In this document: piece by piece, positions 28,773 to 61,697 of the stretch
How the letters are laid out: each line of letters starts with the position of its first letter
Numbering within the stretch: the stretch's first letter is position 1
Assembly (NCBI GenBank): GCA_963700635.1
Contig: CAVOYH010000004.1
Location: 640,001-704,000 of the forward strand
Origin: an uncultured Bacteroidota bacterium
Lineage (GTDB): Bacteria > Bacteroidota > Ignavibacteria > UBA10030 > UBA6906
Length of the DNA stretch: 64,000 nt
Direction of reading: 5' to 3'
The notes under the pieces: model-generated
Told to the model about the DNA's origin: nothing
The model's input: only the letters and a program-made list of their open reading frames with translations
Databases searched by the model: none
Made by a program: the position numbers and the translations under genes

Positions 28773-28849
28773 CAATACTGGACAACCTCTTCCCCGGCTG
28801 GCGTGGGTGGTCACTTGACAACCTCAGAATCACGAATCGGATTTCCTCC

Positions 28850-41609: not shown

Positions 41610-44597
41610 TCAGGCGCCCCCTCCCGGCTTCAGGATCACCCCTTTGTTTTTGTGCCCGTTAATCTTCACGGTTATCGCTTCTTCAAAGCGCAGATGCCTC
41701 GTGAATACCAGTTCTTCCTCCGCTTCCTGCCGCTGGAGCCACTCCCAGTCGATAAACGAAGACGGCACCGCTGCATTCACGGTAAAGTACCCGACACGGA
41801 ATGAAGTGATGTTCTGAAAGAAATGTGACCCCTGGGAAGGAGTTACATGGATATCGCGGAATCCGGACTCGACGATCACGGCTGCCCCTGAGATCTGATC
41901 CCATGTCACGGGGATCCCCAGCCACGGATCCAGGCTGCCCCAGCGGCCGACGCCGATGATAAGATACGCACGTTTTTCCGCTACAAGTTTGGCGTTGAGC
42001 TGGCTTATCTCCTCGGCCACCTCGCGGCTCTTGGCCCGGTCAAAAGTCTGGATATCCACCACCACGATGTCAAAGATTCCGTCGAAGACGCCGTTGCCGA
42101 GTACCTGCTGACTTTCACAGATCAATTCCCGGGGCAGAATATCATCCACATCAAGTTCTTCCATTTCCAGGCTGAGCACCAGGGGACGGATCTGCAGGAG
42201 GGCAAAGTCGCGGGGCTTGTCGGGAGGAACGTTCATGTTCACAGCAAATTCCACTTCCACGTGCGTACCCATGCCCCACGTTCCGAGTTCGAGGATCAGC
42301 TCAAGGATTTCCGGGAGTGGGAAGGTCTTATGTTTCAGAACGGGGGCGAATGTGACGACACGTTTGCCCGGCCGGGAGATGCCGTCGTACACCGAATCGT
42401 TCTCGGAGGAGTACGTCGAGCCCACATAATAAAGGGTCTGGTCTTCTTCGGCTTTCGTCAGATCATATGTTTTGACGAACAGTTCCGGCTCGGGGTGCTC
42501 ATGCGGTAGGAGCCCCTGGGTGAGGTCAAGGGCGAGGAACTCCTGTTGTGCATTCCGGATGGTTTCCTTTGTTGAAAAAAACTGCATGAGGTGCCGGGGG
42601 TACTTCGGACAGAAGCGGACGGAATTTCCGCCTTCAACGACCGTCCGGCCGAGGCCCAAAACCACCTGTACGATCCCGTCAATGGCAGTCTGGGGGGGAA
42701 CCGGATAAAAGTTATACGATCTTGCCACACCCGCGAAATCAGGATAAAACCGGCTATTCCTTTCCGAGCCGACCATACGTTGTATGATCACCGCCATTTT
42801 TTCTTCTTCAAGGCGATAGGCGGTCGCCTTCATGTAGTCCCTTGCACGACGCATAAACGTGGAGGCGTACACACGTTTGATACTCTGCAGGAGTTCCTTC
42901 AGGCGGACATCGTGCTCGGGATGATTGTTGGGGATCATGAATGTGGAATAGACGCCCGCGAAGGGCTGATACTGGGAGTCCTCCAGCACGCTTGATGAAC
43001 GCACGGCGAGCGGTCCATGCATGAGTTCAAGGAACTCGGAGAGCCGGCTGAGTACCTCCTTCGGGAAATTCGGGGCAGCGAGAAATCGTTCGGCCAATTC
43101 CTTGTCATTACGCGCGCTGAGGGCATACCCTTCCAGGTTGTTCTCCGAAAGGAACCGGTCAAAAACGTCCGTGGCGATGACCGCCGCTCCGGGGACGGCG
43201 ATCTCGACGCCGGGGAAGTAATCCCGGATATGATACCGGTTGATGACCGAGTTGATGAACCCGAGTCCCCGCGCCTTGCCCCCGAGCGACCCGCCTCCGA
43301 TGCGCGAGAACCCGCTGACGGGATCAAAACTTTCTCGGTTAAACTCCGTGATCACTCCCCGCTGGCGGTTTTCCTGGTATTCCCGGAGCGCGGTCAGCAG
43401 TTCATTACGCAGGTCGGCGACGGAAGGGAAGTCCGAAACCTTGTGCGGGCGGAGCTTATGTGCCAGGCCGAACTCTGTGCGGGCCTTCAGCCAGTTCGAA
43501 AAATGATTGCGTGAAGCGTGGAACACGATGGACTCGTCAGGGACGACGTGCAGGAGTTCTTCCAGGCTTTTGAGATCCGTGGCCCGGCCTGCTTCCATCC
43601 CGTCGGATGATCGAAACACGAAGTCACCAAAGCCAAAATTGTCCAGCATGTACTGCCGGAGATTATGCAACAGCCGCGGTGATCCCTTCCGGAGAAATGT
43701 CGCGCCGATCTCCCGGGCCTTTTCCTCGTATTCTGAATTGCTGGACTGCAGGAGGATGGAAATATCGGTGTGCCGGTTCCGGACGTTGCGGGCGAACGCA
43801 AAGCCTGCGTCAGGATCCTTGAGGCCGTCACGCTTGAAGTTTACGTCGGTGATAATACCCAGAACAAATTCCTCGTACTTTTCATAGTACGCCCATGCTT
43901 CCTCATAATCGGTACAGAGGAGAATTTTGGGACGCGCGCGCATACGGAGGAACCGGTGCGTCATGTTCACTCCCTCCGAGATCAGGCGCTGTGACTGGTT
44001 CAGGATCTCCGTGTACACGAGGGGCAGGTACATCGAATAAAACTGCACACTGTCTTCGACCAGGATGATGACCTGCACGCCCACGGCCCTCGTGTCATTC
44101 TCCACGTTAAGCCGGTCTTCCAGGCATTTGATGATGGCAATAAGCAGCCGGTAATCGCCCTGCCAGAGGAAGACCTTTTCGAAGACGGAGGTATCATAAT
44201 GGGTTACCAGTTCCTTCCGCTCCTTGTTGTCGTAGGCCAGCAGGACAATCGGCGTGTCAATTCCCGCCTCGCGGACCATGCGCGCGAACCGGACAACGTG
44301 GACATCCTCAATATGAAGCGTGGTGATGATCAGGTCAAACGGCTCGCCGGAGCCGATGAGCTCGAGAGCCTCGCTTGCGCTGCTGACATGCGTAATTTCG
44401 GGGGGGTGACTGAGGTTGAGGACCTGAAATTCCTGACGGATAAGCTCGTACAGGCGTCCGTCTTCTTCAAACAGATACTGATCGTACAAACTCGAGACAA
44501 GAAGAATGTCACGGATTTTGTACCGCATCAACTTCTGGAAGTTCTGGGTCCGGGCGCCTAAAATCTCGTCTAATCGGGGTCGGACGTGCTTGGCCAT
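41610..44597 (-). CDS. Receiver-domain-containing PEP/pyruvate-binding (PEP synthase N-terminal-like) protein
   Basis: IILVEDS...TDVN receiver; GGSLGGKARGL, AVRSSS.LEDS..PFAG, MAVIIQ, EVEFA, LLQIRP. Confidence 0.88.
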   Translation of the reverse strand: MAKHVRPRLDEILGARTQNFQKLMRYKIRDILLVSSLYDQYLFEEDGRLYELIRQEFQVLNLSHPPEITHVSSASEALELIGSGEPFDLIITTLHIEDVHVVRFARMVREAGIDTPIVLLAYDNKERKELVTHYDTSVFEKVFLWQGDYRLLIAIIKCLEDRLNVENDTRAVGVQVIILVEDSVQFYSMYLPLVYTEILNQSQRLISEGVNMTHRFLRMRARPKILLCTDYEEAWAYYEKYEEFVLGIITDVNFKRDGLKDPDAGFAFARNVRNRHTDISILLQSSNSEYEEKAREIGATFLRKGSPRLLHNLRQYMLDNFGFGDFVFRSSDGMEAGRATDLKSLEELLHVVPDESIVFHASRNHFSNWLKARTEFGLAHKLRPHKVSDFPSVADLRNELLTALREYQENRQRGVITEFNRESFDPVSGFSRIGGGSLGGKARGLGFINSVINRYHIRDYFPGVEIAVPGAAVIATDVFDRFLSENNLEGYALSARNDKELAERFLAAPNFPKEVLSRLSEFLELMHGPLAVRSSSVLEDSQYQPFAGVYSTFMIPNNHPEHDVRLKELLQSIKRVYASTFMRRARDYMKATAYRLEEEKMAVIIQRMVGSERNSRFYPDFAGVARSYNFYPVPPQTAIDGIVQVVLGLGRTVVEGGNSVRFCPKYPRHLMQFFSTKETIRNAQQEFLALDLTQGLLPHEHPEPELFVKTYDLTKAEEDQTLYYVGSTYSSENDSVYDGISRPGKRVVTFAPVLKHKTFPLPEILELILELGTWGMGTHVEVEFAVNMNVPPDKPRDFALLQIRPLVLSLEMEELDVDDILPRELICESQQVLGNGVFDGIFDIVVVDIQTFDRAKSREVAEEISQLNAKLVAEKRAYLIIGVGRWGSLDPWLGIPVTWDQISGAAVIVESGFRDIHVTPSQGSHFFQNITSFRVGYFTVNAAVPSSFIDWEWLQRQEAEEELVFTRHLRFEEAITVKINGHKNKGVILKPGGGA

Positions 44598-44636
44598 ACG
44601 GTGTGAGCTGGTTGATGGAAATGTTTCAGTGTTGGC

Positions 44637-44704
44637 ATGATACGTGAATTGCGCCTGAGCCGCAAGCGGGAGAAGTTGATTTTGTCGCAGATGCTGGGTA
44701 TTTT
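44637..44704. promoter_or_regulatory. Divergent sigma70 promoters (minus TTGCGG-N17-TATCAT; plus TTGATT-N17-TATTTT)
   Basis: Minus element 44637-44665, plus element 44676-44704. Confidence 0.55.
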
Positions 44705-44812
44705 ATAATGATACACCTCCCTCAAAGGTGGCCCTGTGGGACACAATCAGGTCTGATGATTCTGTTACGTTGAGTTCACCGCTTCACTTGTATTTATCGT
44801 CAGGAGCAGAGT

Positions 44813-46015
44813 ATGGTCGACATTAAAAAAGGAAAAGGCACTCTTGGAATTCTCACCGGTGGGGGCGATGTACCCGGCCTGAATCCGGCTATTCGTGCCG
44901 TCACGATTCGCGCACTGCGCGAAGGGTACAGCGTTATTGGCATCCGGCGCGGATGGGCGGGGCTGGTGGACATCGTCCGCGAAAAGGACTACAACAATAC
45001 TGATAACTTCCAGGTTCTCTCAGAAGAGATCGTCAACAAAGCAGGTCGCACCGGCGGTACGTTTCTCCATACATCCCGCACGCGGCCCAGCCACGTGAAG
45101 AAGGCCAGCGTCCCCAAGCATCTGCAGGACAAATACAATGCCGAGACGAATGATCTGACGTCGGAGGTTGTGGCCAACCTTTCGTGGCTCGGGGTGGATT
45201 ATCTTATTCCGATCGGTGGCGACGACACGCTGAGCTACGGTGTGCGTTTGTATCAGGACGGCATGAAGGTTGTCGCTATTCCCAAGACGATGGACAACGA
45301 TGTGCCCGGCACAGATTATTGCATCGGATTCAGCACGTGTGTGACACGGACGATCCAGATGACCAACAGTCTTCGCACGTCCGCAGGTTCCCATGAACGA
45401 TTCCTTGTGCTGGAAGTGTTTGGCCGGTACGCCGGATTTACGGCCATGGTGCCCACGATGGCCGGAGCCGCCAACCGGTGTGTAATCCCCGAACACAAAT
45501 ATGACATGGAACATCTCACCGAGCTGATGGCCTACGATCGCAGGAACAATCCAAGTCGCTATGCCGTCGTGCTGGTCTCCGAGGGTTCGATGTTTCAGGG
45601 CGGGGAGATGATGTTCTCAAAGGAGACAACCGATGCCTACGGTCACAAGAAGCTGGGGGGGATCGGAGATCTGGTTTCAGAAAGGCTGAAAGAACTTTCC
45701 CCGAAATTCAACGACGGAAAACCCATCAATACGATTGCCCAGAAACTCGGTTACCTTGTGCGAGGCGGTGATCCGGATGCAGTCGATTCGATCGTGCCGA
45801 TGGCATACGGAAACCTCGCGCTGGACCTTATGCTGAAGGGCGTTCACGGGCGCCTGGTAGTGCTGAAGAACGGCAGGTATGATAACATGCCGCTTGATGT
45901 GGTGACAAGTTCCAAAAAAGTGGTGAATGTCCGCGAACACTATAACATCGAACGGCTTCGCCCGCAATATAACAGCTTCGAGATGAAGCCGCTTTTCCTG
46001 ACCACCAGTGAATAG
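44813..46015 (+). CDS. 6-phosphofructokinase, probably PPi-dependent
   Basis: TGGGDVPGLN, GGDDT, PKTMDND, EVFGR. Confidence 0.92.
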   Translation: MVDIKKGKGTLGILTGGGDVPGLNPAIRAVTIRALREGYSVIGIRRGWAGLVDIVREKDYNNTDNFQVLSEEIVNKAGRTGGTFLHTSRTRPSHVKKASVPKHLQDKYNAETNDLTSEVVANLSWLGVDYLIPIGGDDTLSYGVRLYQDGMKVVAIPKTMDNDVPGTDYCIGFSTCVTRTIQMTNSLRTSAGSHERFLVLEVFGRYAGFTAMVPTMAGAANRCVIPEHKYDMEHLTELMAYDRRNNPSRYAVVLVSEGSMFQGGEMMFSKETTDAYGHKKLGGIGDLVSERLKELSPKFNDGKPINTIAQKLGYLVRGGDPDAVDSIVPMAYGNLALDLMLKGVHGRLVVLKNGRYDNMPLDVVTSSKKVVNVREHYNIERLRPQYNSFEMKPLFLTTSE

Positions 46016-46045
46016 CGTGGTACCAGCCTGAATCCCGTATCTTTT

Positions 46046-46083
46046 GCAGCCCGGAACGCCGCGAAAATGGTGTTCCGGGTTGC
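46046..46083 (+). terminator. 15-bp hairpin after pfk (terminator or processing stem)
   Basis: GCAGCCCGGAACGCC/GGTGTTCCGGGTTGC with G-U pairs; weak U tract. Confidence 0.5.
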
Positions 46084-46101
46084 TTCACCCTTCTCCCGGA
46101 G

Positions 46102-48423
46102 ATGATTATGCGATTTCTCATGGTGTCACTCCTGTTGGCTGTTGTGCTTTCTCAAAGCGCCCCTCTCCATGCCCAGAATCGTGCAATCACACGGGAGGAA
46201 TACCTTAGCTATATGAAAGGCGCTGCGGACGATGGGTGGTCCACACTCCAGGCCGACCGTGAACGCTGGCGGAAAAACGTGGATGTGGAGTATGTGTTCG
46301 GCTACAACCCGCCCGGCAATGAAGTGTATCTTGCCGCCCTGTGTGCAAATCTGTACGAAGCGACCTCGAACCCGGAGTATCTCCAGCGCGCAAAACAGTT
46401 GATTCTGGAATTTGGCAAACATCGTGACGCCTATCCGCGGGATTTCGCCGCAACACGGCAGGAATACGGCGGGGCGCTCCCCGTGATCCCGAATATCTTC
46501 TATTTTGGAAAGTACTGTCATGCGTATGCCCTCGTGAAGAAACACCTCACCCTGACGCCGGCGGAACGGTCGACGATTGATGAAGGCATTGCCGGCAGCG
46601 CAGACTATATCGTGCGTTTTCAGGAGTGGGGCGCGATGAACCGGGCTATGCTCCGGGCGGAAGCCCTGTTGTATGCCGCAAAAGTTGTTCCGGATCATCC
46701 CCATCAACCCCGATGGCTCACCATGGGGAACGCAATCGCAGGCGACAACTTTGAAGAATGGGAAATTGAGGATGCCACCGGATACAACGGAATCTGGTTG
46801 TATTCACTCCTCGCCTACCTGAGCGATATCCGGGAGGAAGAAACATCCTACCGGTCACCAATCTTGCAATACTACTTCGAGTACTATCTTCAGTTGATTT
46901 CGCCCGCGGGAATTATTCCCGATGTCGGAGACGCCAACTGGGGGAGCGGGTGGGACCGGATGATTCCGTTTTTTGAAAAGGGCGCGGCAATCAACAAAGA
47001 CCCCCGGCTGCGCTGGGCTGCCGCGAGCCAGTTCAGAAAGTATATGGATCCCCAGCCTGCAAGAAAGAGCGTGTTTCTGGGAGTGATCTTTGCTGATGCT
47101 CTCCGCTGGGCCGACTTCTCGCTCCCGGCCACGGCGCCGACCAACGGGAGCAGGCAGGTTCTCGAGGACATCGTCGGAAAGAAAGTGGTCTTCCGGAATG
47201 GATGGACTCCCACGAGTACCTATATGCTTCTGAACTACCGGGATGAAGGAGACGGCGGGTGGCTTTTCCGCGAAAATCTCCGGACGGGCATTCCCGTCGA
47301 GGAAGAGAAGATGCACCACGGGCACTCGGACGAGAATAGTATCGCCCTGCTCATGCGTAACAACAGCATCCTGTTGCATGACGGTGGATACAGGGACTAT
47401 ATGCCAAGCGGTCCGTATGGCGCCTTCCGCGCCGACTACCACCATAACCGGCTTGCGGTGCGCGACGGGAAAATCGCGCTCGGCCAACGGCAGGGGGAGT
47501 GGCGGTATGCCACACCGAACCAGCATGCAGTTCCCGGACAGTCCATGCTGGACTACTTCCGGAACTCCGGAGCATATCGGGAGGTCCGCACGCGCAAGAT
47601 CGATTTCCTTGCACTCAAGGATGTCGACTATTCGCGCACCCGGTTGATCGATGAAGGGCTGGGGTACGAGTCCGACCGCCTTATCTATTATATCAAGCAA
47701 CTCGACTGGTTTGTCGTGCTGGATGTGCTCCGTTTTACGCGCCCGACATATCTGACCATGGCGAACCTCTGGCACACCCGCCAGGTGCTTGCCAGCGGCC
47801 CGGGATGGTATGACACCGCCTATGATTCTCTGAACACGCTGGATGTCCGGGGACCGGACCGTTTGCTCGTGCTTTTCCCCCAGCGCGCGCAGCTGGCGGA
47901 AGGTGTCGAAGACATCCAGCGCTACTATCAGTCTGAAAAGGTGGTGTATCAAATGATCGGGCGGCACGGCTACCGGAATGCCCTGCAGAGTTTTGTGACG
48001 GTTCTCATCCCGCACGGCCCCGGACAGAAACCCGAGGATCTTGCTGCGTGCGTGGAAATGCTCCCGACAGACGACCCCGCCCGCGCCGTTGCCCTCAAGA
48101 TCACCAGGGATGGTACCACGTATATACTCGGCGCAAAACTTGATCTGGAGGCCGAGCTGGTGCGCGACTGGCGCCGGCCAATGTATACATATGATTCGGG
48201 CAAAACGCGGTATGGTGAATACGAAACAGACGCCTTCACACTCTTCGCTGTGGAGACAAAGGCGTCGCTCCGCTACGCCGTTGTCGGTGCGGTCAAAGTG
48301 ACGCATCGCGGTACAGTCCTGCACGAACAACTGCCGGTGCGCGCGGGATTAAGTTTTGACGGAGGCCCCGATCAACCGGGCACACTCAAGATGCGGCACT
48401 GGGAGGGGGAAGTACGGCGATGA
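46102..48423 (+). CDS. Secreted heparinase II/III-like protein (putative polysaccharide lyase)
   Basis: Signal peptide; helical N-terminal half; P..GD, FRNGW, HGHSDENS, LLHDGGY, HHNRLAV. Confidence 0.65.
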   Translation: MIMRFLMVSLLLAVVLSQSAPLHAQNRAITREEYLSYMKGAADDGWSTLQADRERWRKNVDVEYVFGYNPPGNEVYLAALCANLYEATSNPEYLQRAKQLILEFGKHRDAYPRDFAATRQEYGGALPVIPNIFYFGKYCHAYALVKKHLTLTPAERSTIDEGIAGSADYIVRFQEWGAMNRAMLRAEALLYAAKVVPDHPHQPRWLTMGNAIAGDNFEEWEIEDATGYNGIWLYSLLAYLSDIREEETSYRSPILQYYFEYYLQLISPAGIIPDVGDANWGSGWDRMIPFFEKGAAINKDPRLRWAAASQFRKYMDPQPARKSVFLGVIFADALRWADFSLPATAPTNGSRQVLEDIVGKKVVFRNGWTPTSTYMLLNYRDEGDGGWLFRENLRTGIPVEEEKMHHGHSDENSIALLMRNNSILLHDGGYRDYMPSGPYGAFRADYHHNRLAVRDGKIALGQRQGEWRYATPNQHAVPGQSMLDYFRNSGAYREVRTRKIDFLALKDVDYSRTRLIDEGLGYESDRLIYYIKQLDWFVVLDVLRFTRPTYLTMANLWHTRQVLASGPGWYDTAYDSLNTLDVRGPDRLLVLFPQRAQLAEGVEDIQRYYQSEKVVYQMIGRHGYRNALQSFVTVLIPHGPGQKPEDLAACVEMLPTDDPARAVALKITRDGTTYILGAKLDLEAELVRDWRRPMYTYDSGKTRYGEYETDAFTLFAVETKASLRYAVVGAVKVTHRGTVLHEQLPVRAGLSFDGGPDQPGTLKMRHWEGEVRR

Positions 48424-49676
48424 GTCTGACGTCGCGCGAACGGCTTGCAACGACCCTCCGCCATCAGTCTCCGGACCGCGTGTGTGTGGATTTTGGGGCG
48501 ACGGCGGTGACCGGCATGGCGGCCAGTCTCGTCTCCAAGCTGCGGTGCAAAGTTCTGGGAAACCCCGGGTACCGGGTGAAAGTGACCGAACCATATCAGA
48601 TGCTGGGAGAAATTGATGATGAATTGCGCGAAGCCCTCGGCATCGACGTGATGGGAGTCGCGGCGCCCAGGACAATGTTCGGATTCGCCAATCGCGGCTG
48701 GAAGCCGTTCACACTGTTCGACGGGACGGAGGTGCTTGTACCGGAGGACTTTCGTGTTACGGTGGACGACCACCAGAATCTGCTCATCTATCCGGAAGGG
48801 GACACATCAGTCCCACCGAGCGGCCGGATGCCGGAGGGAGGGCATTTTTTTGATGCGATTCCGCGGCAGGAACCCGTCGTCGAAGAAGAGCTGGATCCGG
48901 CGGCGAATCTTGAGGAGTTTACCCTCCTGACGGAAACCGATCTTCACCATTATGACACCGAGGCCGATCGGGCCGTCCTGCGGGAGAAGGGATCCATCGT
49001 GGGCACTCCCGGCACGGCATTCGGTGATATCGCGCTCGTCCCAGCGGTGTGGAGAAAACACACGAGGGGGATCCGCGAGATCGAAGAGTGGTATGTCTCG
49101 ACAAGCGCCCGGAAGGACTATGTTTTCAAAGTGTTCGAAGGTCAATGCGAAATCGCCCTCCAGAATCTCGAACGCCTGATTTCAACCCTCGGCTACAAGG
49201 TGCAGGTCGCCTTTGTCACCGGCACGGACTTTGGAACGCAGACCGGGCTTTTTATCTCGCCCAAGGCCTACCGGGACCTGTACATGCCCTTCCACAAGAT
49301 CATCAACGAGTACATCCACAAACATTCACCCTGGAAAACATTCATCCATTCCTGTGGATGTGTGGTTGATCTGATACCGGATTTTATCGAGGCCGGCTTT
49401 GATATCCTCAATCCGGTCCAGACTTCGGCAGCCGGGATGGATCCTGTCTGGCTCAAGAAGACATACGGCAAAGATCTGGTGTTCTGGGGGGGAGGGGTGG
49501 ACACTCAGAAAACTCTCCCGTACGGCACTCCTGCGGAGGTGTTTGATGAAGTCCGGGAGCGGATCCGCATCTTCAATGATGGCGGAGGATTTGTCTTTAA
49601 TTCGGTCCACAACATTCAGGCGAATGTCCCTGTGGAAAACGTCGAAGCGATGTTTCGGGCGCTTGGAGAAGCATAG
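48420..49676 (+). CDS. URO-D/MtaA-CmuA family protein (methyltransferase-like)
   Basis: TSRER, PDRV, DFGTQ...ISP, FIHSCG, LNPVQ, FWGGGVDTQ, HNIQ. Confidence 0.88.
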   Translation: MSLTSRERLATTLRHQSPDRVCVDFGATAVTGMAASLVSKLRCKVLGNPGYRVKVTEPYQMLGEIDDELREALGIDVMGVAAPRTMFGFANRGWKPFTLFDGTEVLVPEDFRVTVDDHQNLLIYPEGDTSVPPSGRMPEGGHFFDAIPRQEPVVEEELDPAANLEEFTLLTETDLHHYDTEADRAVLREKGSIVGTPGTAFGDIALVPAVWRKHTRGIREIEEWYVSTSARKDYVFKVFEGQCEIALQNLERLISTLGYKVQVAFVTGTDFGTQTGLFISPKAYRDLYMPFHKIINEYIHKHSPWKTFIHSCGCVVDLIPDFIEAGFDILNPVQTSAAGMDPVWLKKTYGKDLVFWGGGVDTQKTLPYGTPAEVFDEVRERIRIFNDGGGFVFNSVHNIQANVPVENVEAMFRALGEA

Positions 49677-49720
49677 AAAGTGAAAGCCAGGGACACACGG
49701 GAAGGGAGCATGCGGAAGGT

Positions 49721-50404
49721 ATGGGGGCAGCGCGAAGCGTAAAGGCTGTGATGTTTGATCTGGATGGGACCCTGCTGGATTCGCTGGAAGATCTCGCAGA
49801 TTCGATGAACACTGTCCTGACAGAAAAAGGGTGGCCCCCGCATCCGGTTGATGCCTATCGGTATTTTGTCGGAGATGGCGCGGCAACCCTGATCCATCGT
49901 GTGCTGCCTGCAGACCACCGCACCCCCGCAGTAGAAGCTGAATGTCTGAGCCTGTTCCGGGCGGCTTACGCCACGCGATGGAATATCAAGACGCGCCCGT
50001 ATCAGGGCATCCCGGAAATGCTCGCTGCCCTCGCTGCCCGGAAAACCAGAATGGCCGTGCTTTCGAACAAGCCGCATGATGCCACGGAGCAATGTGTCCG
50101 GGAATTGCTCAGGGAGACCAGGTTCGATGCGGTACAGGGTCAGCGTGCAACAATTCCCAAAAAGCCCGCGCCCGACGGTGCGGTGATTGTCGCCCGTACG
50201 CTCGGCGTGGAACCCGGGGAAATCCTCTACCTCGGGGATACGGCCACCGACATGCAGACCGCCGTGGGGGCAGGGATGATTCCCATCGGTGCACTCTGGG
50301 GATTCCGGTCCGCCGGAGAGCTGCTCGAGCACGGTGCGCGTCGGGTGCTCGGGCATCCGCAGGAGCTTCTCCCTCTTCTTGACGACAGGACATTCTTCGC
50401 ATGA
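49721..50404 (+). CDS. HAD-family phosphatase (Gph-like)
   Basis: FDLDGTL, SNK, KPAP, GD...D. Confidence 0.92.
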   Translation: MGAARSVKAVMFDLDGTLLDSLEDLADSMNTVLTEKGWPPHPVDAYRYFVGDGAATLIHRVLPADHRTPAVEAECLSLFRAAYATRWNIKTRPYQGIPEMLAALAARKTRMAVLSNKPHDATEQCVRELLRETRFDAVQGQRATIPKKPAPDGAVIVARTLGVEPGEILYLGDTATDMQTAVGAGMIPIGALWGFRSAGELLEHGARRVLGHPQELLPLLDDRTFFA

Positions 50405-51381
50405 ACCGGCCGCCATTTTTTGTTCCCGTTGTGTATGAGCATGCTGCGCAACTTATCGGCAAGCGTCCGTGGGAAGTTTCCCGCGACGTTGACCTCCTTG
50501 TTGCAGCACACAGCGCGGCCTACACCCGGTACCATCACTCGCCGGTGATTGCGGGCATCGACGTGTACAATGTTGAAGCGGAAGCGTATGGTTCTGTCCT
50601 GGGTGACGCCGGCGGATTGTCTATCCCCTCGGTCGTCCGGTACGCCTGTTCCCGGGTCGGCGAAATTCTCGATCTTCCGCCCCCGGAGGTCCGCACCGGC
50701 GGACGATTCCCCAAAATTTTCGAGGCCGCACGCAGACTGCAGGATCGGTTTCCCACGACCAAGGTACGCGTCCCCCTGAGCGGTCCGTTCTCGATCGCGA
50801 GTAATCTTGTCGGTTTTGAAGAGCTGTTGTACGGGGTGATTGGTGAACCCGATCTCGTCAGCGAGGTACTGCTCCATCTTGCCCGGCACCAGGGTATCGT
50901 GGTCGGCGAGGCAAACGCAATGGGATTGGATGTTATTGTGTTTGAATCAGCGGCGACGCCTCCGCTCCTTTCCCCTTCGGCGTTCCGGGCGGTAGAACTT
51001 CCTGCGCTCCAGGTGCTGGCTGATGCCCACCGGTCTACCGCCGGCACGGGATTTCACCTGGTGGTCGGAGGAAATACGGTGTCTATTCTGGACAGTCTTG
51101 TCGGGCTTCAGCCGGCACTCCTGCTCTGTCCGTCTGAAACAGACCAGAAAACATTTATGGAACAGATGCGGCTTCATCCGGAAATCACCGTGCGGATCAA
51201 CATTTCGCCGATCGTGTTCACCGCCGCGGGGGAGAGTAGTGCATTCGTGGAAGCGGACAGCGCGCTTGCGCTTGCCGCCGGCCGCGAGAACGTGAATATC
51301 GGAACCGGCGTGCTTCCGTATGACGCTGATCCGGAAATTGTCTTACGCATTCAGTCTTATATCGAGGGGCACCGACAATGA
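50401..51381 (+). CDS. Divergent URO-D family protein lacking the HxC Zn motif
   Basis: D.YNVEAEAYG, GRFP, GPFSIA, ESAA...LLSP..F. Confidence 0.75.
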   Translation: MNRPPFFVPVVYEHAAQLIGKRPWEVSRDVDLLVAAHSAAYTRYHHSPVIAGIDVYNVEAEAYGSVLGDAGGLSIPSVVRYACSRVGEILDLPPPEVRTGGRFPKIFEAARRLQDRFPTTKVRVPLSGPFSIASNLVGFEELLYGVIGEPDLVSEVLLHLARHQGIVVGEANAMGLDVIVFESAATPPLLSPSAFRAVELPALQVLADAHRSTAGTGFHLVVGGNTVSILDSLVGLQPALLLCPSETDQKTFMEQMRLHPEITVRINISPIVFTAAGESSAFVEADSALALAAGRENVNIGTGVLPYDADPEIVLRIQSYIEGHRQ

Positions 51382-51701
51382 AACGGTATGGGATGATCAT
51401 CCGGGTGAAGGCGGGACAGCTTGAAGAATATCGCCGCCTTCACGCGGCAGTGTGGCCGGACGTCATTGCGACGATCACCGCGTGTAACATCCGCAACTAC
51501 TCGATCTTTCTCAGGGACAACACCCTGTTCAGCTACTTCGAGTACGTGGGAGTGGATTTTGCGGCGGACATGAAACGGATGGCTGACGATCCGGCGACCC
51601 AGCGGTGGTGGGACCTCACCAAACCATGTCAGGAACCGGTCCCCGGCGCACAACAGGGGGAATGGTGGGCGCCAATGGAAGAAGTTTTTCACTGTGTGTA
51701 G
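51378..51701 (+). CDS. rhaM: L-rhamnose mutarotase family protein
   Basis: EY.RLH..VWP, NIRNYSIF, LFSYFEY, WW..MEEVF. Confidence 0.88.
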   Translation: MKRYGMIIRVKAGQLEEYRRLHAAVWPDVIATITACNIRNYSIFLRDNTLFSYFEYVGVDFAADMKRMADDPATQRWWDLTKPCQEPVPGAQQGEWWAPMEEVFHCV

Positions 51702-51762
51702 TCCGGACAGGGTGTGCGTGAGCATGTGCTCAGCAGACACCCTTCGTCCGCCTTTGTCCGGA
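51702..51762. repeat. Intergenic nested hairpin
   Basis: TCCGGACA/TGTCCGGA, AGGGTGT/ACACCCT and TGAGCA/TGCTCA stems. Confidence 0.55.
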
Positions 51763-51805
51763 TGTGCGCACACGCGTTAGGTCACACGCATCAAAGGAGT
51801 TCCTC

Positions 51806-54049
51806 ATGAACATCCGCGTCTGTATTCTGTGCTTCTGCCTCTGTTCAGCGCCGGGCGCCGGGGCGACGGAGTTTTTTGTCTCACTGAGCGGTTCCGACAG
51901 GAACCCGGGAACACTCGAGCAACCGTTCCGGACGCTTGAGGGCGCGCGGGATGCCCTGCGTGCGCACGCCCGGAAAGGGGGCCTTCCCCCGGATGGCGCC
52001 ACGATTACGGTCCGGGGCGGTACGTACATGCTGTCAAAGACTTTTATGCTCGAGAAACAGGATGGCGGTACCTCCGATCAGCCCGTGCGGTATCGTGCCG
52101 CCGTGGGAGAGCAGGTCAGAATTATCGGCGGAAAGGATCTTCCTCTTGATACGTTCCGCCCGGTCTCTGATTCCCGCGTCCTCGCCCGAATCAGACCTGA
52201 AGCCAGAACGCACGTTCTGGAATGTGACCTCCGCACCCACGGCATACAGAACTTCGGCACGCACCGTCAGGCTGGACACGGACACCCCGTGCAGCCCGCA
52301 CCGCTTGAACTGTTCTTCAATGATACGCCGATGCCGCTGGCACACTACCCTGACACCGGGGAGATCATGATCGGTGAGATCATTGATCCCGGGTCGATCC
52401 CGAGAATTGGTGACTACGTCAACATCCGCGGGGGGACGTTTGTGTACACGGATCCGCGGCATGCAGACTGGCTCGCAGCGGAGGAGATCTGGTTCCAGGG
52501 TTATTTTAAGTGGGGATTCGCGGATGACAAGATCCGTGTCGCATCCATCGACACAACCCGCAAGAGAGTGACCTTTGCATCGCCGCACATGTACGGTCTC
52601 GGAACCGGTGAGCCGTTTAATGGCTATATCGCACTCAATCTCCTGGAAGAACTTACCATGCCGGGAGAGTGGTATCTGGATCGCACGCGGGGGATGCTCT
52701 ACTTCTGGCCGCCGACAGATGTCCAGACACCGTATGCCTCGGTGTCACTTCTTGAGGACCCGCTGATTGCCCTTGAGGACGTGTCGTTTCTGTCGCTCGA
52801 GGGGTTTACCCTGGAACTCGGACGCAGCATGGGTGTCGTCATCGAGGCTGGAAGCCACGTAACCATCGCAGGATGCACGGTGCGGAACATGGGAACCAGC
52901 GGAATCTTTTTCGGACAGGGAGCGGTACAGACGTTCCCCCATCTCACCGCTGACGATTACGAAGGAGTTCCGGCTTCACGCACGATGGGCGCGTTCCAGA
53001 TGCACTACTACAAGTACACGACATGGGATCGTAAGGCGGGATCCCACCATCGCGTGCTCTCCTGTGATGTGTACAACATGGGTGCGGGGGGGATTACACT
53101 CGGCGGGGGCAGCAAAAAGGACCTTGTCCCCGGCGGGTCGTCGGTCGAAAACTGCCGGGTCTACAATTATAACCGCCACCACAAGGCACAGTGGGCGGGC
53201 ATCAATGTGGACGGCTGCGGCAATCTGGTGGCACACAACGAAGTGTTTCGCGCAGACCTGCAGGCCATGTTTGTCAGGGGCAACGACCACATCTTCGAAT
53301 ACAACCACGTGCACCACGTCGCACAGAATTCCAACGACGCCTCCGCCTGGTATCTCGGCAGGGATCCCAGCGACCAGGGGAACGTGGTGCGCTACAACTT
53401 CTTTCATCATGTCGGACGCGCCGACCGCAAATGGATGATGGGCGTCTATTGCGACGACGCGACGTGTAATGTCCTGATCGAAGGGAACGTGTTCTATAAG
53501 GCGGCATCATATGGCACAGTCTACAGTAACGGCGGACACGACATCGTGGTGCTGAACAATATCTTTGTCGAGGGGTATGGCCCGGTGTTCCAGCTAAAAT
53601 CCATGTGGTACGATTTCGGAATGTTCCAGCTTCCATACTTCTTTGGTCCGGAGGGAGTGTACCGCCGTCGCCTGACAAGGGACATAGACATCCGGAAACC
53701 TCCCTACAGCGTCCGCTATCCGGGCCTCACCGATTGGTTCGACCTTCTGCCCGACAGTACCACGTACGTGGGGATGCGACCGCGGCGCAACAGATTCGAG
53801 CGAAATCTGATTGTGGGATATGAAGAGTCATACCGGCTGGTGGGAGAGTATGCGCAATGCGAATTTAAGGACAACCTGATGACCCAGACCGACCCCGGTT
53901 TTGTGGATGCTTCCCGGCTGGACTTCCGTCTTCGTGACGGAGCCGAGGTGTACACCCGGATCCCGGGGTTCAAGCCGATTCCATTCGATACAATCGGATT
54001 GTACCTGGATCAATACAGACGAACGTTGCCGGCGGCGATGACGCACTAA
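51806..54049 (+). CDS. Secreted right-handed beta-helix glycoside hydrolase (GH141-like)
   Basis: FFVS..GSD.NPGT...PFRT, GGTY, PGEWYLD, parallel beta-helix repeats, YCDD. Confidence 0.75.
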   Translation: MNIRVCILCFCLCSAPGAGATEFFVSLSGSDRNPGTLEQPFRTLEGARDALRAHARKGGLPPDGATITVRGGTYMLSKTFMLEKQDGGTSDQPVRYRAAVGEQVRIIGGKDLPLDTFRPVSDSRVLARIRPEARTHVLECDLRTHGIQNFGTHRQAGHGHPVQPAPLELFFNDTPMPLAHYPDTGEIMIGEIIDPGSIPRIGDYVNIRGGTFVYTDPRHADWLAAEEIWFQGYFKWGFADDKIRVASIDTTRKRVTFASPHMYGLGTGEPFNGYIALNLLEELTMPGEWYLDRTRGMLYFWPPTDVQTPYASVSLLEDPLIALEDVSFLSLEGFTLELGRSMGVVIEAGSHVTIAGCTVRNMGTSGIFFGQGAVQTFPHLTADDYEGVPASRTMGAFQMHYYKYTTWDRKAGSHHRVLSCDVYNMGAGGITLGGGSKKDLVPGGSSVENCRVYNYNRHHKAQWAGINVDGCGNLVAHNEVFRADLQAMFVRGNDHIFEYNHVHHVAQNSNDASAWYLGRDPSDQGNVVRYNFFHHVGRADRKWMMGVYCDDATCNVLIEGNVFYKAASYGTVYSNGGHDIVVLNNIFVEGYGPVFQLKSMWYDFGMFQLPYFFGPEGVYRRRLTRDIDIRKPPYSVRYPGLTDWFDLLPDSTTYVGMRPRRNRFERNLIVGYEESYRLVGEYAQCEFKDNLMTQTDPGFVDASRLDFRLRDGAEVYTRIPGFKPIPFDTIGLYLDQYRRTLPAAMTH

Positions 54050-54104
54050 TCCCGGTTTCGTTCGATATGTGGTGCTGAGTGGCGGCGGAAAGGACTGCAA
54101 GACC

Positions 54105-56372
54105 ATGGTCGATCTCGAACAACTTCTTGCCCGGGAGCTTGCAATAGAGCTCGTGCAGGTCCGGAATGCTCTGCAATTGCAGCAGGAGGGGGGGACTGTG
54201 CCGTTTATCGCCCGCTACCGGAAAGAGCGGACCGGGGAGATGGACGAAGTGCAGCTGCACGCGTTGTTCGACCGGTACGCGTATCTGACCGACCTGGAAC
54301 AGCGAAAAGTTGCGATTCTGGACTCTATTGACAAACAGGGCAAGCTGACCGACGAACTGCGAAGCCGGGTTGAAGCCTGTGCGCAGAAGACCGAGCTGGA
54401 GGATCTCTACCTTCCGTACCGCCCCAGGAAGCGTACCCGTGCGACGGTGGCAAAAGAAAAGGGTCTCGAGCCGCTGGCCGAGCTCATCCGGGCTGCGAAT
54501 GCCCCTTCGGTCACGGCATTCGACCTTATTGCAGCCGCGATACCCTTTGTGTCCGATGAAAAGAACGTCCCCACACCCGACGAGGCTCTGGCTGGAGCAG
54601 CCGATATTCTTGCCGAGGAAATCGCCGAGAACGCAGAGTACCGTGGCCACCTGCGGGGATATCTGTTTGATCATGGGGTCTTCACCTCTGATGTAAAGCC
54701 GGATTTCCCCGCGGGGAGTACAAAATTCGAGATGTACCGCGGTTTCAAGGTGAATGCCCGCGAGATCCACCCGCACAATATGCTGGCATTGCTGCGGGGG
54801 GAGAAGGAAAACTTCCTCACGTTTGATCTGGTGTTTGATGAAGAGGCCGTGCTTGTGTACCTGCGCGATGCTGTCACGTCTTCTGGTGCACCTTCCGTGC
54901 GGTCGTTTTACGAAATGCTGGCGCGTGATGCGTTCGACCGGCTTATGCGCGCTTCGCTTGTCGGAGAGGTCAGGGCTTTGTGCAAGGAAGCGGCAGACCG
55001 GGAATCGATTACGACGTTTGAAGCAAATTTGCGCCAGCTGCTGCTCTCGCCACCGGCCGGGATGAAGCCGACCATCGGCGTAGATCCCGGCTTACGCACC
55101 GGATGCAAGGTCGTGGTTCTGGATGCCACAGGGAAGCTCCTGGAACATGCCACAATCTATCCGCACAGATCGCCGGCTGAACGGACCGCAGCCGCACAAA
55201 CGTTGATCACTCTGATGCAAACTTCCGGCGCCGACCTGATTGCAATCGGAAATGGAACCGGAGGCAGGGAGACGGAATCTTTTGTCGCAGAAGTGGTGGC
55301 TTCGCTAGAACGGAAGCCGGTGCGTGTGATGGTCAACGAAGCGGGTGCGTCGGTCTATTCCGCAAGCACCCTCGCCCGCGAAGAGTTCCCCGATCTGGAT
55401 GTCACTGTACGCGGCGCGGTGAGCATCGGGCGCCGTCTTCAGGACCCGCTTTCCGAGCTTGTAAAGATCGACCCGAAATCGATCGGTGTCGGACAGTACC
55501 AGCACGACGTGGACCAGAAACAATTGCGAAAACGTCTGCAGGAAACCGTGGAAAGCTGCGTGAACTTTGTCGGCGTGGACGTGAATACGGCGTCGCGGGA
55601 GCTTCTGAAATATGTCGCCGGGGTGAACTCCGCCACCGCGAAAAATGTCGTCACCTACCGGAACGAACACGGCCCCTACAAGAGCCGCGAGGATCTCCGT
55701 CAGGTTCCGAAATTCGGATCAAAAACATTCGAACAAGCAGCCGGCTTTCTGCGTATCCGGGACGCCGCCAATCCGCTTGATAACTCGGCCGTCCACCCGG
55801 AAAGTTACACGATCGCGGAAAAAATTCTGGCAGACCTCGGGTCCACAGTCCAGACACTGACCCTCGAACCGGATCGTCTGCTGAACGTGAAGGTATCGGA
55901 CTACGTCACGGACAAGGCAGGGGAGCCGACGGTTCGTGATATCCTCAATGAGCTCAAGAAACCAGGGCGTGATCCCAGGGCCGAATTCCGTTATGCGACG
56001 TTCAAAGACGGCATCAAAGAGATCAAGGACCTCGCTCCGGGTATGGAGCTGGAGGGGGTCATCACGAATGTCACGAATTTCGGAGCATTTGTGGATGTTG
56101 GCGTGCATCAGGATGGTCTTGTTCACGTGTCGCAGATTGCCGACAGGTTCGTCCAGGATCCCAAGACGATTGTACATGTCGGGGAAGTTGTCACGGTCCG
56201 CGTGCTTGAGGTAAATTCTCAACTGAAGCGGATCAGTCTGACGATGAAGCGGGGAGGCGAGAAGCACCCGAAGCGCGCGAAGTCGCGTCACCCCGGAAAA
56301 AAAGCAAAGCCCGAGGATACGCACCCCAAGTTTACCGTCGATGACCTGAAGAAAAAATTTAACAACCGGTAG
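54105..56372 (+). CDS. tex: Tex-family RNA-binding transcription accessory protein
   Basis: TVPFIARYRKE, DPGLRTGCK, GVGQYQHD, S1 domain. Confidence 0.95.
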   Translation: MVDLEQLLARELAIELVQVRNALQLQQEGGTVPFIARYRKERTGEMDEVQLHALFDRYAYLTDLEQRKVAILDSIDKQGKLTDELRSRVEACAQKTELEDLYLPYRPRKRTRATVAKEKGLEPLAELIRAANAPSVTAFDLIAAAIPFVSDEKNVPTPDEALAGAADILAEEIAENAEYRGHLRGYLFDHGVFTSDVKPDFPAGSTKFEMYRGFKVNAREIHPHNMLALLRGEKENFLTFDLVFDEEAVLVYLRDAVTSSGAPSVRSFYEMLARDAFDRLMRASLVGEVRALCKEAADRESITTFEANLRQLLLSPPAGMKPTIGVDPGLRTGCKVVVLDATGKLLEHATIYPHRSPAERTAAAQTLITLMQTSGADLIAIGNGTGGRETESFVAEVVASLERKPVRVMVNEAGASVYSASTLAREEFPDLDVTVRGAVSIGRRLQDPLSELVKIDPKSIGVGQYQHDVDQKQLRKRLQETVESCVNFVGVDVNTASRELLKYVAGVNSATAKNVVTYRNEHGPYKSREDLRQVPKFGSKTFEQAAGFLRIRDAANPLDNSAVHPESYTIAEKILADLGSTVQTLTLEPDRLLNVKVSDYVTDKAGEPTVRDILNELKKPGRDPRAEFRYATFKDGIKEIKDLAPGMELEGVITNVTNFGAFVDVGVHQDGLVHVSQIADRFVQDPKTIVHVGEVVTVRVLEVNSQLKRISLTMKRGGEKHPKRAKSRHPGKKAKPEDTHPKFTVDDLKKKFNNR

Positions 56373-56388
56373 AGAAGGGAGATACAGA

Positions 56389-56514
56389 ATGAACGTTTCA
56401 ACAAGGGAAGGTTTCGTCAGCGCTCCGGATTGCGCGTGGGTTGTCGCAGGCGAAGGTATCCGGATGGATGTCCACATTCCAGCCCGTGAAGATTGTTTCA
56501 CGGGGGGGAGCTGA
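56389..56514 (+). pseudogene. kdgF: 41-codon remnant of a KdgF-type cupin with an internal deletion
   Basis: MNVSTREGFVSAPDCAWVVAGEGIR|MDVHIPAREDCFTGGS joins KdgF-like N- and C-terminal motifs; GGGAG RBS; 4 nt before kduD. Confidence 0.6.
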
Positions 56515-56518
56515 TCTC

Positions 56519-57274
56519 ATGAATCCACTCTTTGACCTTACAGGAAGTGTGGCATTAATCACCGGAGCCGGAACGGGACTCGGGGCTGGAATGGCGAAAG
56601 GCCTCGCGGGTGCAGGTGCGGATGTTATTCTTGTCGACCGCATGGATCCGGATGAGACAGCCGAACCAATCCGCGGAATGGGACAAAAGGTTCTTTCGCT
56701 GACCGCGGACCTGTCCGGCCTGCCGGCGATGCACGAGGTCGTCCGGAAAGGCCTGGAAGCGTTCGGGCACATCGACATTCTCATCAACAACGCCGGCATC
56801 ATCCGGCGTACGCCCGCCATCGATTTTTCGGAGACAGACTGGGATGAGGTGATGGCGATTAACGCCAAGACAGTTTTCTTTATGAGCCAGGCGGTCGCCC
56901 GGGACATGATCCAACGCGGGTCGGGGAAGATCATCAATATTGCATCGCTGCTGAGTTTCAGCGGGGGTATTACCGTCCCGTCGTATGCGGCGAGCAAAGG
57001 CGCAGTAACACAAATCACGAAAGCGCTGGCCAATGAATGGGCGCACTACGGTCTCAACATCAATGCGATCGCCCCGGGGTACATGGTCACAAACAATACG
57101 GCGAACCTGCGGAAGGATGCGGAACGCACACGGTCGATTTCAGAGCGAATCCCCGCAGGCCGTTGGGGTATGCCTGAAGATTTGCAGGGGGCTGCCATCT
57201 TTCTTGCATCGAAGGCATCGGACTATGTGAACGGGCATGTATTACTCGTTGACGGGGGATGGATGGCGCGGTAA
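56519..57274 (+). CDS. kduD: 2-dehydro-3-deoxy-D-gluconate 5-dehydrogenase
   Basis: TGAGTGLG, NNAGIIRR, YAASK, DGGWMAR. Confidence 0.93.
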   Translation: MNPLFDLTGSVALITGAGTGLGAGMAKGLAGAGADVILVDRMDPDETAEPIRGMGQKVLSLTADLSGLPAMHEVVRKGLEAFGHIDILINNAGIIRRTPAIDFSETDWDEVMAINAKTVFFMSQAVARDMIQRGSGKIINIASLLSFSGGITVPSYAASKGAVTQITKALANEWAHYGLNINAIAPGYMVTNNTANLRKDAERTRSISERIPAGRWGMPEDLQGAAIFLASKASDYVNGHVLLVDGGWMAR

Positions 57275-57319
57275 GAACTCACGAACATGTCATGGACGCA
57301 TTCAGAAGGATTACACGGT

Positions 57320-58279: not shown

Positions 58280-58304
58280 GACGTCCGGAAAGGCCGTGGA
58301 AGTG

Positions 58305-59480: not shown

Positions 59481-59490
59481 ACCGGACTCC

Positions 59491-60648: not shown

Positions 60649-60768
60649 AACAGGATCCTTCCGTCATCGACTCCTGCTGTCCGCCGGTGTGGTTTATCTG
60701 TGCACACGCCGGACTGCAGGATTCATATCGTACAATGTTCCATTGACAATCGTAGAGGAGTGAGCCTT

Positions 60769-61602: not shown

Positions 61603-61697
61603 GATAAAGGCTCCTAACACTACGCCAGAGACGCGTATATTTTCGTAAGGGCAGGCAGGGGGAAGAAGAGTCACGAAAACGACATCAGGAGACAGGA

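Follow-up and report, generated by a model that had tools for sequence, protein, structure and literature searches.

The stretch analyzed here (the window; 64 kb) covers positions 640001 to 704000 of contig CAVOYH010000004.1 (C4) in the genome of an uncultured Bacteroidota bacterium of the class Ignavibacteria (assembly GCA_963700635.1; 4.2 Mb in 6 contigs). Between positions 46102 and 54049 of the window, the list of open reading frames (ORFs) and the sequence itself reveal a tight row of six ORFs, all on the forward strand. Two of them encode proteins, here called U1 and U2, that are divergent members of the uroporphyrinogen decarboxylase (URO-D) fold and are proposed to be corrinoid-dependent methyltransferases. 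The genes of the row and the features of U1 discussed below are as follows (positions are those of the window).

46102..48423, + strand: p773, first gene of the operon, a secreted protein of 773 amino acids (aa) with a signal peptide, distantly heparinase II/III-like (polysaccharide-lyase-like)
48420..49676, + strand: U1 (URO-D #1), a cytoplasmic protein of 418 aa (PF01208, E = 1.1e-13)
49347..49358, + strand: H310-S-C312-G motif of U1 (codons CAT TCC TGT GGA), with the first two putative metal ligands
49608..49610, + strand: codon of H397 of U1, the putative third ligand (position counted from the start at 48420)
49721..50404, + strand: HAD-family phosphatase, phosphoglycolate-phosphatase-like (HAD_2, E = 2.5e-30)
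50401..51381, + strand: U2 (URO-D #2), 326 aa (PF01208, E = 6.8e-18)
51378..51701, + strand: RhaM-family mutarotase, 107 aa (PF05336, E = 3.7e-35)
51764..54049, + strand: secreted right-handed β-helix protein, optional last gene of the operon (Beta_helix, E = 9.4e-13)

A phosphofructokinase gene flanks the row upstream and a Tex gene flanks it downstream. Direct reading of the sequence finds ATGA overlaps at 48420-48423, 50401-50404, and 51378-51381, the last of which joins the stop codon of U2 to the start codon of the mutarotase gene. A first-pass annotation of the window, made from the letters alone, had described the six co-directional genes, the three overlaps, and the HSCG motif of U1, all of which lie where it placed them.

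Family and putative metal site of the two URO-D-fold proteins

U1 matches the Pfam URO-D family (PF01208) with 51.4 bits (gathering cutoff, 23.9), and only over residues 269 to 415, its C-terminal third; U2 matches the same family with 65.2 bits. HemE was considered as an assignment for both proteins and rejected. Neither matches the hemE equivalog TIGR01464 at an E value of 0.01 or lower, the best match of U1 to a HemE in the PDB has an E value of 0.099, and the genome encodes a separate true HemE at C5:101309 (PF01208, E = 5.8e-141). Whether the two proteins cluster with true HemE had been raised by the first-pass annotation; the equivalog search, the separate hemE gene, and the tree described below all indicate that they do not. 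U1 and U2 share PF01208 and the overall barrel with HemE, but their neighbors are not heme genes, and no heme-pathway family is found among the 43 window ORFs of at least 100 aa that were scanned.

Sequence searches of the PDB with U1 return marginal matches only (CdmB, E = 0.85). Its AF2 model (pLDDT, 89.3) has the MtaA protein of Methanosarcina mazei (4ay7/4ay8) as its best fold match, followed by UROD and MetE, and a profile-profile comparison (hhalign) relates U1 to MtaA-like proteins with a probability of 97.4%. In that alignment, H310 and C312 of U1 fall on the H-x-C of the MtaA-like proteins, and H397 falls on their third-ligand Cys (FVFNSVHNIQ versus FVISSGCDIP). The zinc site of the MtaA type combines His-x-Cys with a downstream Cys, so that U1 departs from it at the third position, His397. 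The HSCG motif is invariant in the U1 orthologs of two alignments (60/60 and 36/36), and H397 is likewise invariant.

Orthologs of U1, 60 to 89% identical to it, are found across Bacteroidota, Planctomycetota, Verrucomicrobiota, and other phyla. At an E value of 1e-5 or lower, a set of 5.8 billion proteins contains at least 8,000 candidate relatives, the top 120 of which are 65 to 100% identical; a full scan of representatives clustered at 50% identity yields 811 clusters at E ≤ 1e-30. In a tree of 30 rows, U1 and its orthologs form a group with support of 100/99, located within a subgroup (88/89) that also holds corrinoid-adjacent paralogs from the same genome, and U1 lies apart from the MtaA-like proteins.

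In U2, none of the three ligands of the MtaA zinc site is present; the protein has LVVGGN at the place of HSCG, in agreement with the first-pass annotation, which had noted the absence of this motif. By sequence, U2 matches MtaA in the PDB (4ay7, E = 9.8e-8), and its model (pLDDT, 94) is a canonical MtaA/UROD barrel with MtaA as the best match (TM score, 0.77 to 0.80 to 4ay7/4ay8). Its score against the MtaA/CmuA family TIGR01463 is 42.4 bits, below the family cutoff of 235.4. The tree places U2 on the MtaA/HemE side with weak support (74/76), and 49 columns are invariant in the U2 family, many of them polar.

The nearest paralog of U2 in this genome (C4:927233-928195; 46% identity) is operonic with a Pterin_bind gene, two genes for parts of methylenetetrahydrofolate reductase (MTHFR), and an ORF with a B12-binding domain, an arrangement that is kept in relatives. 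In the surrounding region (L119; C4:918000-935195), the order of content is U2 paralog, Pterin_bind, C-terminal MTHFR part (DUF5981), MTHFR, and B12-binding ORF; the same strand carries, upstream of this set, a gene for a 928-aa protein without a Pfam family.

Gene neighborhoods and co-occurrence with corrinoid machinery

Neighborhoods were counted in contigs from one genome per species, where 379 stretches encode U1 relatives and 80 were kept, and in a metagenome sample of another 80 U1 loci, 42 of which span at least 8 kb. The 80 genome loci carry the labels Bacteroidota/Ignavibacteriota, Planctomycetota, Verrucomicrobiota, Kiritimatiellae, Lentisphaerae, Hydrogenedentota, Sumerlaeota, Armatimonadetes, and Fibrobacter, and the carriers include a metagenome-assembled genome labeled Victivallis vadensis (L042).

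Corrinoid-system genes (corrinoid protein, the activase RACo, an MtaA-like protein, or a MetH-type activation domain) lie within 8 kb of U1 in 4 of the 80 genome loci and in 11 of the 80 metagenome loci. Two Opitutaceae loci (L097 and L095) encode, on one strand, U1, a XylE-like transporter of the major facilitator superfamily (MFS), DUF1638, RACo, a corrinoid protein, and MtaB, with an AraC gene divergent upstream. In L095, a gene for a fused FA_desaturase-Rieske-NAD_binding protein of 832 aa (L095:11276-13774) is inserted between DUF1638 and RACo. A Phycisphaerales locus has MtaB, a corrinoid protein, and a URO-D protein in a row 4 kb upstream of U1. Five metagenome loci (L146, L153, L158, L159, and L176) share the order MtaA-like protein, RACo, corrinoid protein, and U1, in some cases preceded by DUF1638, with the corrinoid gene approximately 100 to 230 bases upstream of U1; one of these has tandem copies of U1, one is headed by an S-methyltransferase gene (PF02574), and one includes a GH2 gene. 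Shorter arrangements are U1 followed by a corrinoid protein (L180 and L191) and by an MtaA-like protein (L139).

In the genome G071, from the same phylum and another family, a U1-like gene (45% identity) stands first in an operon, followed in order by genes for a corrinoid protein, a MetH-type activation domain, an MtaA-like protein, SusC, and SusD. This operon (C66; L216, L121, and L217) stands under an ECF-sigma/FecR pair and is flanked by GH92, GH99, GH2, melibiase-like, and two GH67N-like genes. It is a polysaccharide-utilization locus with a complete corrinoid methyl-transfer system, in which the MetH-type activation domain takes the place of RACo. Genes of the three-component system thus adjoin U1 orthologs in L095, L097, L146, L153, L158, L159, L176, and G071, and none lies in the window. 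The neighborhood analysis suggested by the first-pass annotation, for B12-binding and RamA-type activator genes, accordingly finds U1 orthologs directly beside such modules in other organisms.

Its counterpart for carbohydrate-active enzymes (CAZymes) likewise finds U1 orthologs beside sugar porters and CAZymes, as well as in the SusC/SusD locus of G071. The most common neighbor of U1 is a sugar-porter MFS protein, which forms the largest neighbor cluster (36/80 genome loci) and is mostly encoded immediately downstream; by tblastn, a sugar porter is found near U1 in 45 of the 80 genome loci and in 17 of the 80 metagenome loci. The best NCBIfam match of this porter is XylE, with 444 to 461 bits (equivalog cutoff, 608), compared with approximately 110 bits for aromatic-acid symporters. 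An AraC regulator gene is divergent upstream of U1 in 19 of 80 loci. Other recurrent neighbors are GH120-like β-helix proteins (14/80), sulfatases (8/80), GFO/IDH/MocA oxidoreductases (8/80), and GH2 (7/80), as well as GH95. The hints to the identity of the sugar conflict: the XylE-like porter and the GH120-like proteins stand against RhaM in the window and GH92, GH99, and GH67N-like proteins in the G071 locus.

At the genome level, RACo (PF14574) is encoded in 37 of 40 U1-carrying genomes, in 5 of 201 sampled genomes of the same phylum, and in 1 of 14 control genomes. Full-length U1 relatives are found in 5 genomes of the own-phylum sample, 3 of which have RACo. A sample of 151 Planctomycetota genomes includes 54 with RACo and 8 with a U1-like protein (E ≤ 1e-80); RACo is present in all 8 of the latter, compared with 46 of the 143 U1-negative genomes. 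One-sided Fisher tests give p = 7e-5 for the own phylum and p = 2e-4 for Planctomycetota (0.002 and 5e-4 after dropping the U1-positive genome on which each sample was centered), values to be read with the caveat that the genomes, being related, are not independent samples. Small B12-binding_2 proteins are encoded in all five U1-positive genomes that lack RACo. MtaB was considered as an obligate partner of U1 and rejected, because only 17 of the 40 U1-carrying genomes encode it. First-look counts of U1-like candidates, which are unconfirmed as genes, reach 36 to 48 per genome in the Planctomycetota G335, G350, G247, and G255, and one genome has 7 RACo matches, which hints that the expansion there may exceed that in the genome of the window.

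The genome of the window itself has 24 PF01208 matches. A profile built from these copies retrieves 27 ORFs, which correspond to 26 genes (one is split), of which 25 are URO-D-fold copies other than HemE. Most of them have an H-x-C or H-x-D motif, and several form near-identical duplicate pairs; examples are C3:552601-553689, C3:449966-451030, C3:671425-672552, C3:1841538-1842641, C4:18241-19344, and C6:63113-64267. At least 10 of the 25 adjoin CAZyme or sugar transporter genes (GxGYxYP, GH97, GH38, AXE1, β-helix, MFS_2, SSF, and ABC). The split copy, a U1-like paralog at C3:332227-333455, is read as two ORFs (335 and 123 aa) that overlap; its neighbors are a GxGYxYP gene and a TonB-dependent receptor gene. 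A frameshift, a pseudogene, or faulty assembly could explain the split.

Two near-duplicate modules, one on the contig of the window (L117; C4:39110-59038) and one at C3:1862000-1881999 (L115), encode an MtaA-like URO-D protein (H-x-C...C), RACo, DUF1638, a PF02574 S-methyltransferase, a corrinoid protein (at C4:50357 in L117), and a URO-D paralog with an H-T-D motif. Their flanks carry an SSF transporter, a short-chain dehydrogenase/reductase (SDR), a Golvesin_C protein, and a LytTR/histidine-kinase pair. All parts of the three-component system are therefore encoded elsewhere on the contig of the window: the search of the rest of the genome for corrinoid proteins, proposed in the first-pass annotation, finds them there together with RACo/RamA activases and MtaA-like partners. 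A lone gene for MtaB (methanol:cobalamin methyltransferase B, E = 7.5e-159) without an adjacent corrinoid protein gene is found in L122 (C3:76000-93000), between GH97 and catalase genes and near a gene for a Hepar_II_III_C protein.

Accessory genes and surroundings of the operon

The first gene of the row, p773, had been labeled heparinase-like. The label draws on weak similarity to NCBIfam HepC (E = 9.5e-4) and to heparinase III in the PDB (4fnv, E = 0.0023); no Pfam family matches at E ≤ 0.01, including Hepar_II_III_N, Hepar_II_III_C, and DUF4962, so that the label holds for distant resemblance and fails for a Pfam heparinase domain. Look-alike clusters retrieved by a language model are annotated as "Heparinase II/III family" (score, 0.99), which is a lead and not a proof. 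Seven of 80 loci, all from close relatives, retain the gene upstream of U1. The HAD phosphatase scores 133 bits against PGP_bact (cutoff, 180), and its gene lies between those of U1 and U2 in 6 of 80 loci, again in close relatives. The mutarotase exceeds the cutoff of PF05336 with 120.7 bits and reaches 51.1 bits against the YiiL equivalog TIGR02625 (cutoff, 99.6); it appears to be a RhaM-family member of uncertain sugar specificity.

The β-helix protein has its best PDB matches in 9rx2 (E = 2.2e-17) and BT_1002 (5mqp, E = 9.6e-7). It is a distant relative of GH141, as judged from its sequence, and falls outside that family, because its GH141_M score (PF21231) is 16.4 bits with a cutoff of 27 and the match to BT_1002 is confined to residues 34 to 123, approximately 90 N-terminal residues. 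The gene is kept in 3 of 7 syntenic relatives. With such a distant relationship and such patchy conservation, the connection to GH141 and rhamnogalacturonan-II drawn in the first-pass annotation is weak. The exact order p773-U1-HAD-U2-RhaM is found in 6 or 7 close relatives only.

Several genes of the surroundings also relate to sugars. An L-rhamnose isomerase gene (RhaA, E = 3.3e-178) lies 16 kb upstream of the operon, at 28697-30121 of the window. Downstream of Tex (56441-62783) there is a uronate set consisting of a KduD-like SDR, KDPG aldolase, a GH88-like protein, DUF4861/BT3233, KduI, and a PfkB kinase. Just upstream of the phosphofructokinase gene, on the reverse strand (41610-44597), a 995-aa protein combines a response-regulator receiver domain (below the cutoff) with PPDK_N, a phosphoenolpyruvate-utilizing, ATP-binding domain. 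No Rfam family reaches its gathering score in the window, and no cobalamin riboswitch is seen there. A scan of positions 44500 to 56500 for sigma-70 promoters and terminators, which does not cover the promoters of this phylum, gives nothing usable. A look-up of sequencing runs lists none for 46102-54049.

Proposed function and alternatives

The row is probably a glycan-utilization module in which both URO-D proteins act as corrinoid-dependent methyltransferases, and not as decarboxylases, and remove the O-methyl groups of imported methyl sugars. U1 is proposed to be a zinc- and corrinoid-protein-dependent methyltransferase of the substrate-side (MT I) type, and U2 a second, zinc-independent one. 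What the analysis shows is the gene content, the fold, the conserved triad, and the way U1 lies near, and shares genomes with, genes for corrinoid proteins and sugar use; the direction of transfer, the metal, that the substrate is a sugar, and which sugar it would be go beyond this and are inferred. Methyl ethers of sugars block glycosidases and catabolic enzymes; examples are 2-O-methyl-xylose and 2-O-methyl-fucose in rhamnogalacturonan-II, 4-O-methyl-glucuronate in xylans, 6-O-methyl-galactose in algae, and 3-O-methyl-rhamnose, 3-O-methyl-mannose, and 3-O-methyl-galactose.

In the proposed pathway, the secreted lyase-like p773 and the β-helix enzyme would free an O-methylated sugar from a polysaccharide. 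The sugar would then be imported; in most other organisms, a XylE-like porter gene lies beside U1. Cytoplasmic U1 would bind the methyl sugar, and a His310/Cys312/His397 metal site, probably with zinc, would polarize the ether oxygen, and the methyl group would pass to cobalt, in the Co(I) state, on a small MtaC-like corrinoid protein. The plain sugar set free in this step would go to the RhaM-type mutarotase and to ordinary catabolism. The methyl group of the methyl-Co(III) protein might be taken over by a methyltransferase that is MtaA-like, homocysteine-S-methyltransferase-like, or pterin-binding, and a RACo/RamA activase would repair oxidized cobalt; candidates for the unloading enzymes and the activase are encoded elsewhere on the same contig. 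U2 may be a further methyltransferase like U1 but without the metal site, serving another methyl donor or another step. What this keeps of the demethylation route put forward in the first-pass annotation is MtaA/CmuA-type methyl transfer acting on methylated sugars, with the corrinoid partner encoded elsewhere, an idea that the corrinoid modules and the sugar-gene context support as independent genomic evidence; the pairing of the two proteins and the rhamnogalacturonan-II link are not retained.

Several observations weigh against this assignment. U1 scores 35.8 bits against TIGR01463, far below the cutoff that U2 also misses, and its third ligand would be a His instead of a Cys, so that zinc is only the putative metal. 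The 10 PF02310 matches of the genome all lie outside C4:640001-704000, so that, as the first-pass annotation had stated for corrinoid and heme genes alike, the window has no corrinoid protein; the 43 scanned ORFs also include no activase and no transporter. No corrinoid gene lies within 8 kb of U1 in 76 of the 80 genome loci and 69 of the 80 metagenome loci. The presence of RACo may partly track an anaerobic lifestyle and not U1 itself, and RACo is missing from G077 (U1, 56% identity; 100% complete) and from G071. In the L095 and L097 operons, MtaB is the only other methyltransferase, and the model assigns no step to the HAD phosphatase.

The MtaB of these two operons is also an argument for an acceptor-side role, in which U1, as an analogue of MtaA (MT II), would move a methyl group from a corrinoid protein, for instance one loaded with methanol via MtaB, to a metal-activated acceptor. 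The H-x-C metal motif is typical of acceptor-side enzymes of the MtaA type, and MtaB occurs in 17 of 40 U1-carrying genomes and in the genome of the window. It is, however, missing from the other 23, and in L146, L153, L158, L176, L139, and the G071 locus a canonical MtaA-like protein (H-x-C...C) is already encoded beside U1, which therefore fills the substrate-side slot. The dedicated AraC regulator and sugar porter suggest action on an imported compound, the tree puts U1 away from the MtaA-like proteins, and some MT I enzymes also contain zinc, according to the accessible part of PMC13222342. Such a role for U1 is thus quite unlikely. It is unlikely, too, that U1 and U2 are corrinoid-dependent demethylases of compounds other than sugars, such as lignin-derived methoxylated aromatics, O-methyl cyclitols (pinitol), or methylated amines or thiols. 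Transporters of the sugar-porter family also carry cyclitols, many U1 carriers come from fens, bogs, soils, and sediments according to their record labels, and the characterized UroD-superfamily MT I enzymes described in the accessible part of PMC13222342 all use aryl methyl ethers or halomethanes. Yet the adjacent transporter resembles XylE far more than aromatic-acid symporters (444 to 461 versus approximately 110 bits); glycoside hydrolases, sulfatases, and SusC/SusD recur near U1; the neighbors in the window are a lyase-like protein, a mutarotase, and a β-helix hydrolase; and at least 10 of the 25 non-HemE paralogs lie beside CAZymes or sugar transporters.

A link to corrinoids that is an ecological coincidence, with U1 and/or U2 being a corrinoid-independent decarboxylase, isomerase, or hydratase of sugar acids or deoxy-sugars, is very doubtful. 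UROD needs no cofactor, most U1 loci have no corrinoid gene nearby, and uronate genes (KduI, SDR, KDPG aldolase, and GH88-like) lie just downstream in the window. Against this stand the repeated same-strand positions of U1 inside operons with corrinoid protein, activase, and MtaA-like genes in unrelated phyla, the distribution of RACo (37/40 U1-carrying genomes versus 5/201 of the own phylum), and the operon that the closest U2 paralog shares with a corrinoid protein and a pterin-binding methyltransferase. The decarboxylation and isomerization options of the first-pass annotation are disfavored by this co-occurrence. Its suggestion of a catalytic/noncatalytic pair, that is, an obligate heteromer of U1 as the subunit with the metal site and U2 as its noncatalytic partner, is highly improbable. 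Six close relatives retain both U1 and U2 with the HAD gene in the middle, and URO-D-fold enzymes are dimers (CdmB, in the accessible part of PMC13222342). Nevertheless, an obligate pair is unlikely because U2 lacks the metal site, duplicates a gene of a corrinoid operon (the 46% identical paralog, which has no U1-like gene beside it), and belongs to a family found in 10 and missing from 33 of 43 U1-carrying genomes; its 49 invariant columns, many of them polar, also argue against a noncatalytic role. By its sequence relationships, U2 would be a lineage-specific duplicate of another corrinoid-linked methyltransferase, and neither a dead protein nor an obligate partner of U1.

The proposed roles of U1 and U2 as corrinoid-dependent sugar demethylases can be compared with several known systems. 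MtaA and MtbA, the methylcobamide:coenzyme M methyltransferases (4ay7), are the best structural match of both proteins, and the H-x-C of U1 falls on their zinc ligands; U1 differs in having His for the third Cys and approximately 80 extra residues, and U2 in having none of the three ligands. To our knowledge, coenzyme M is not expected in these bacteria.

The MT I enzymes of the UroD superfamily described in the accessible part of PMC13222342 are OdmB and VdmB of Acetobacterium dehalogenans, MtvB of Moorella, and CdmB (PDB 9rui). They fold as TIM barrels in which insertions follow the first strands, some of them contain zinc, and their partners are a small corrinoid protein, another methyltransferase, and an activase that depends on ATP. 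Orthologs of U1 occupy the same operon slot as these enzymes, and the sequence similarity between U1 and CdmB is marginal (E = 0.85). Unlike the acetogen enzymes, whose donors are aryl methyl ethers or chloromethane according to the same source, U1 is associated with sugar porters, AraC, CAZymes, SusC/SusD, and glycan-degrading phyla and has a His/Cys/His triad. The RACo-DUF1638-corrinoid protein modules of the genome studied here resemble the mlp gene clusters of type 1 in a preprint by Kountz and Balskus (PMC10418091), but those clusters are found mainly in Firmicutes and serve methyl-sulfur or methyl-selenide metabolism, as far as the accessible text goes; a term search of that text has no mention of sugar, Bacteroid-, Planctomyc-, or DUF1638. 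In the accessible parts of these sources, none of the acetogen MT I/CdmBCA, MtaA/MtbA, and type 1 mlp systems is tied to carbohydrates.

In the literature searched, whose coverage does not extend to subscription journals, there is no paper on corrinoid-dependent demethylation of sugars and none that joins uroporphyrinogen decarboxylase with polysaccharide utilization. The only carbohydrate demethylase found there is an O2-dependent cytochrome P450, the 6-O-methyl-D-galactose demethylase of the porphyran pathway in marine Bacteroidota (accessible parts of PMC6292453 and PMC10033563). Its task is the one proposed here, the removal of a sugar methyl ether that blocks catabolism in the context of polysaccharide utilization. 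The P450 route, as described there, is oxidative, requires O2, yields formaldehyde, and uses an unrelated fold, whereas the route proposed for U1 would be nucleophilic and O2 independent and would pass the methyl group to cobalt.

The feature is thus best classed as a corrinoid methyltransferase system recruited to glycan degradation. A wider and more tentative possibility, less probable than the assignment of the operon itself, is that U1 and its many paralogs make up an unrecognized class of B12-dependent carbohydrate-active proteins, with separate O-demethylases for individual methyl sugars that share a module of corrinoid protein, activase, and MtaA-like protein. If so, modules that encode MtaB, as in Opitutaceae, would amount to a net O2-independent methyl-ether hydrolase that releases methanol, and elsewhere the methyl group would feed the folate or methionine pools. 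A corrinoid route of this kind would explain how anaerobic and microaerobic glycan degraders handle methyl sugars, and would tie the availability of B12 to glycan turnover and to the supply of methanol and methyl groups in anoxic soils, sediments, and guts. It would also add a new class of B12-dependent enzymes to polysaccharide-utilization loci and assign a role to a family that is very large and lacks annotation (811 clusters), whose members are directly testable candidates.

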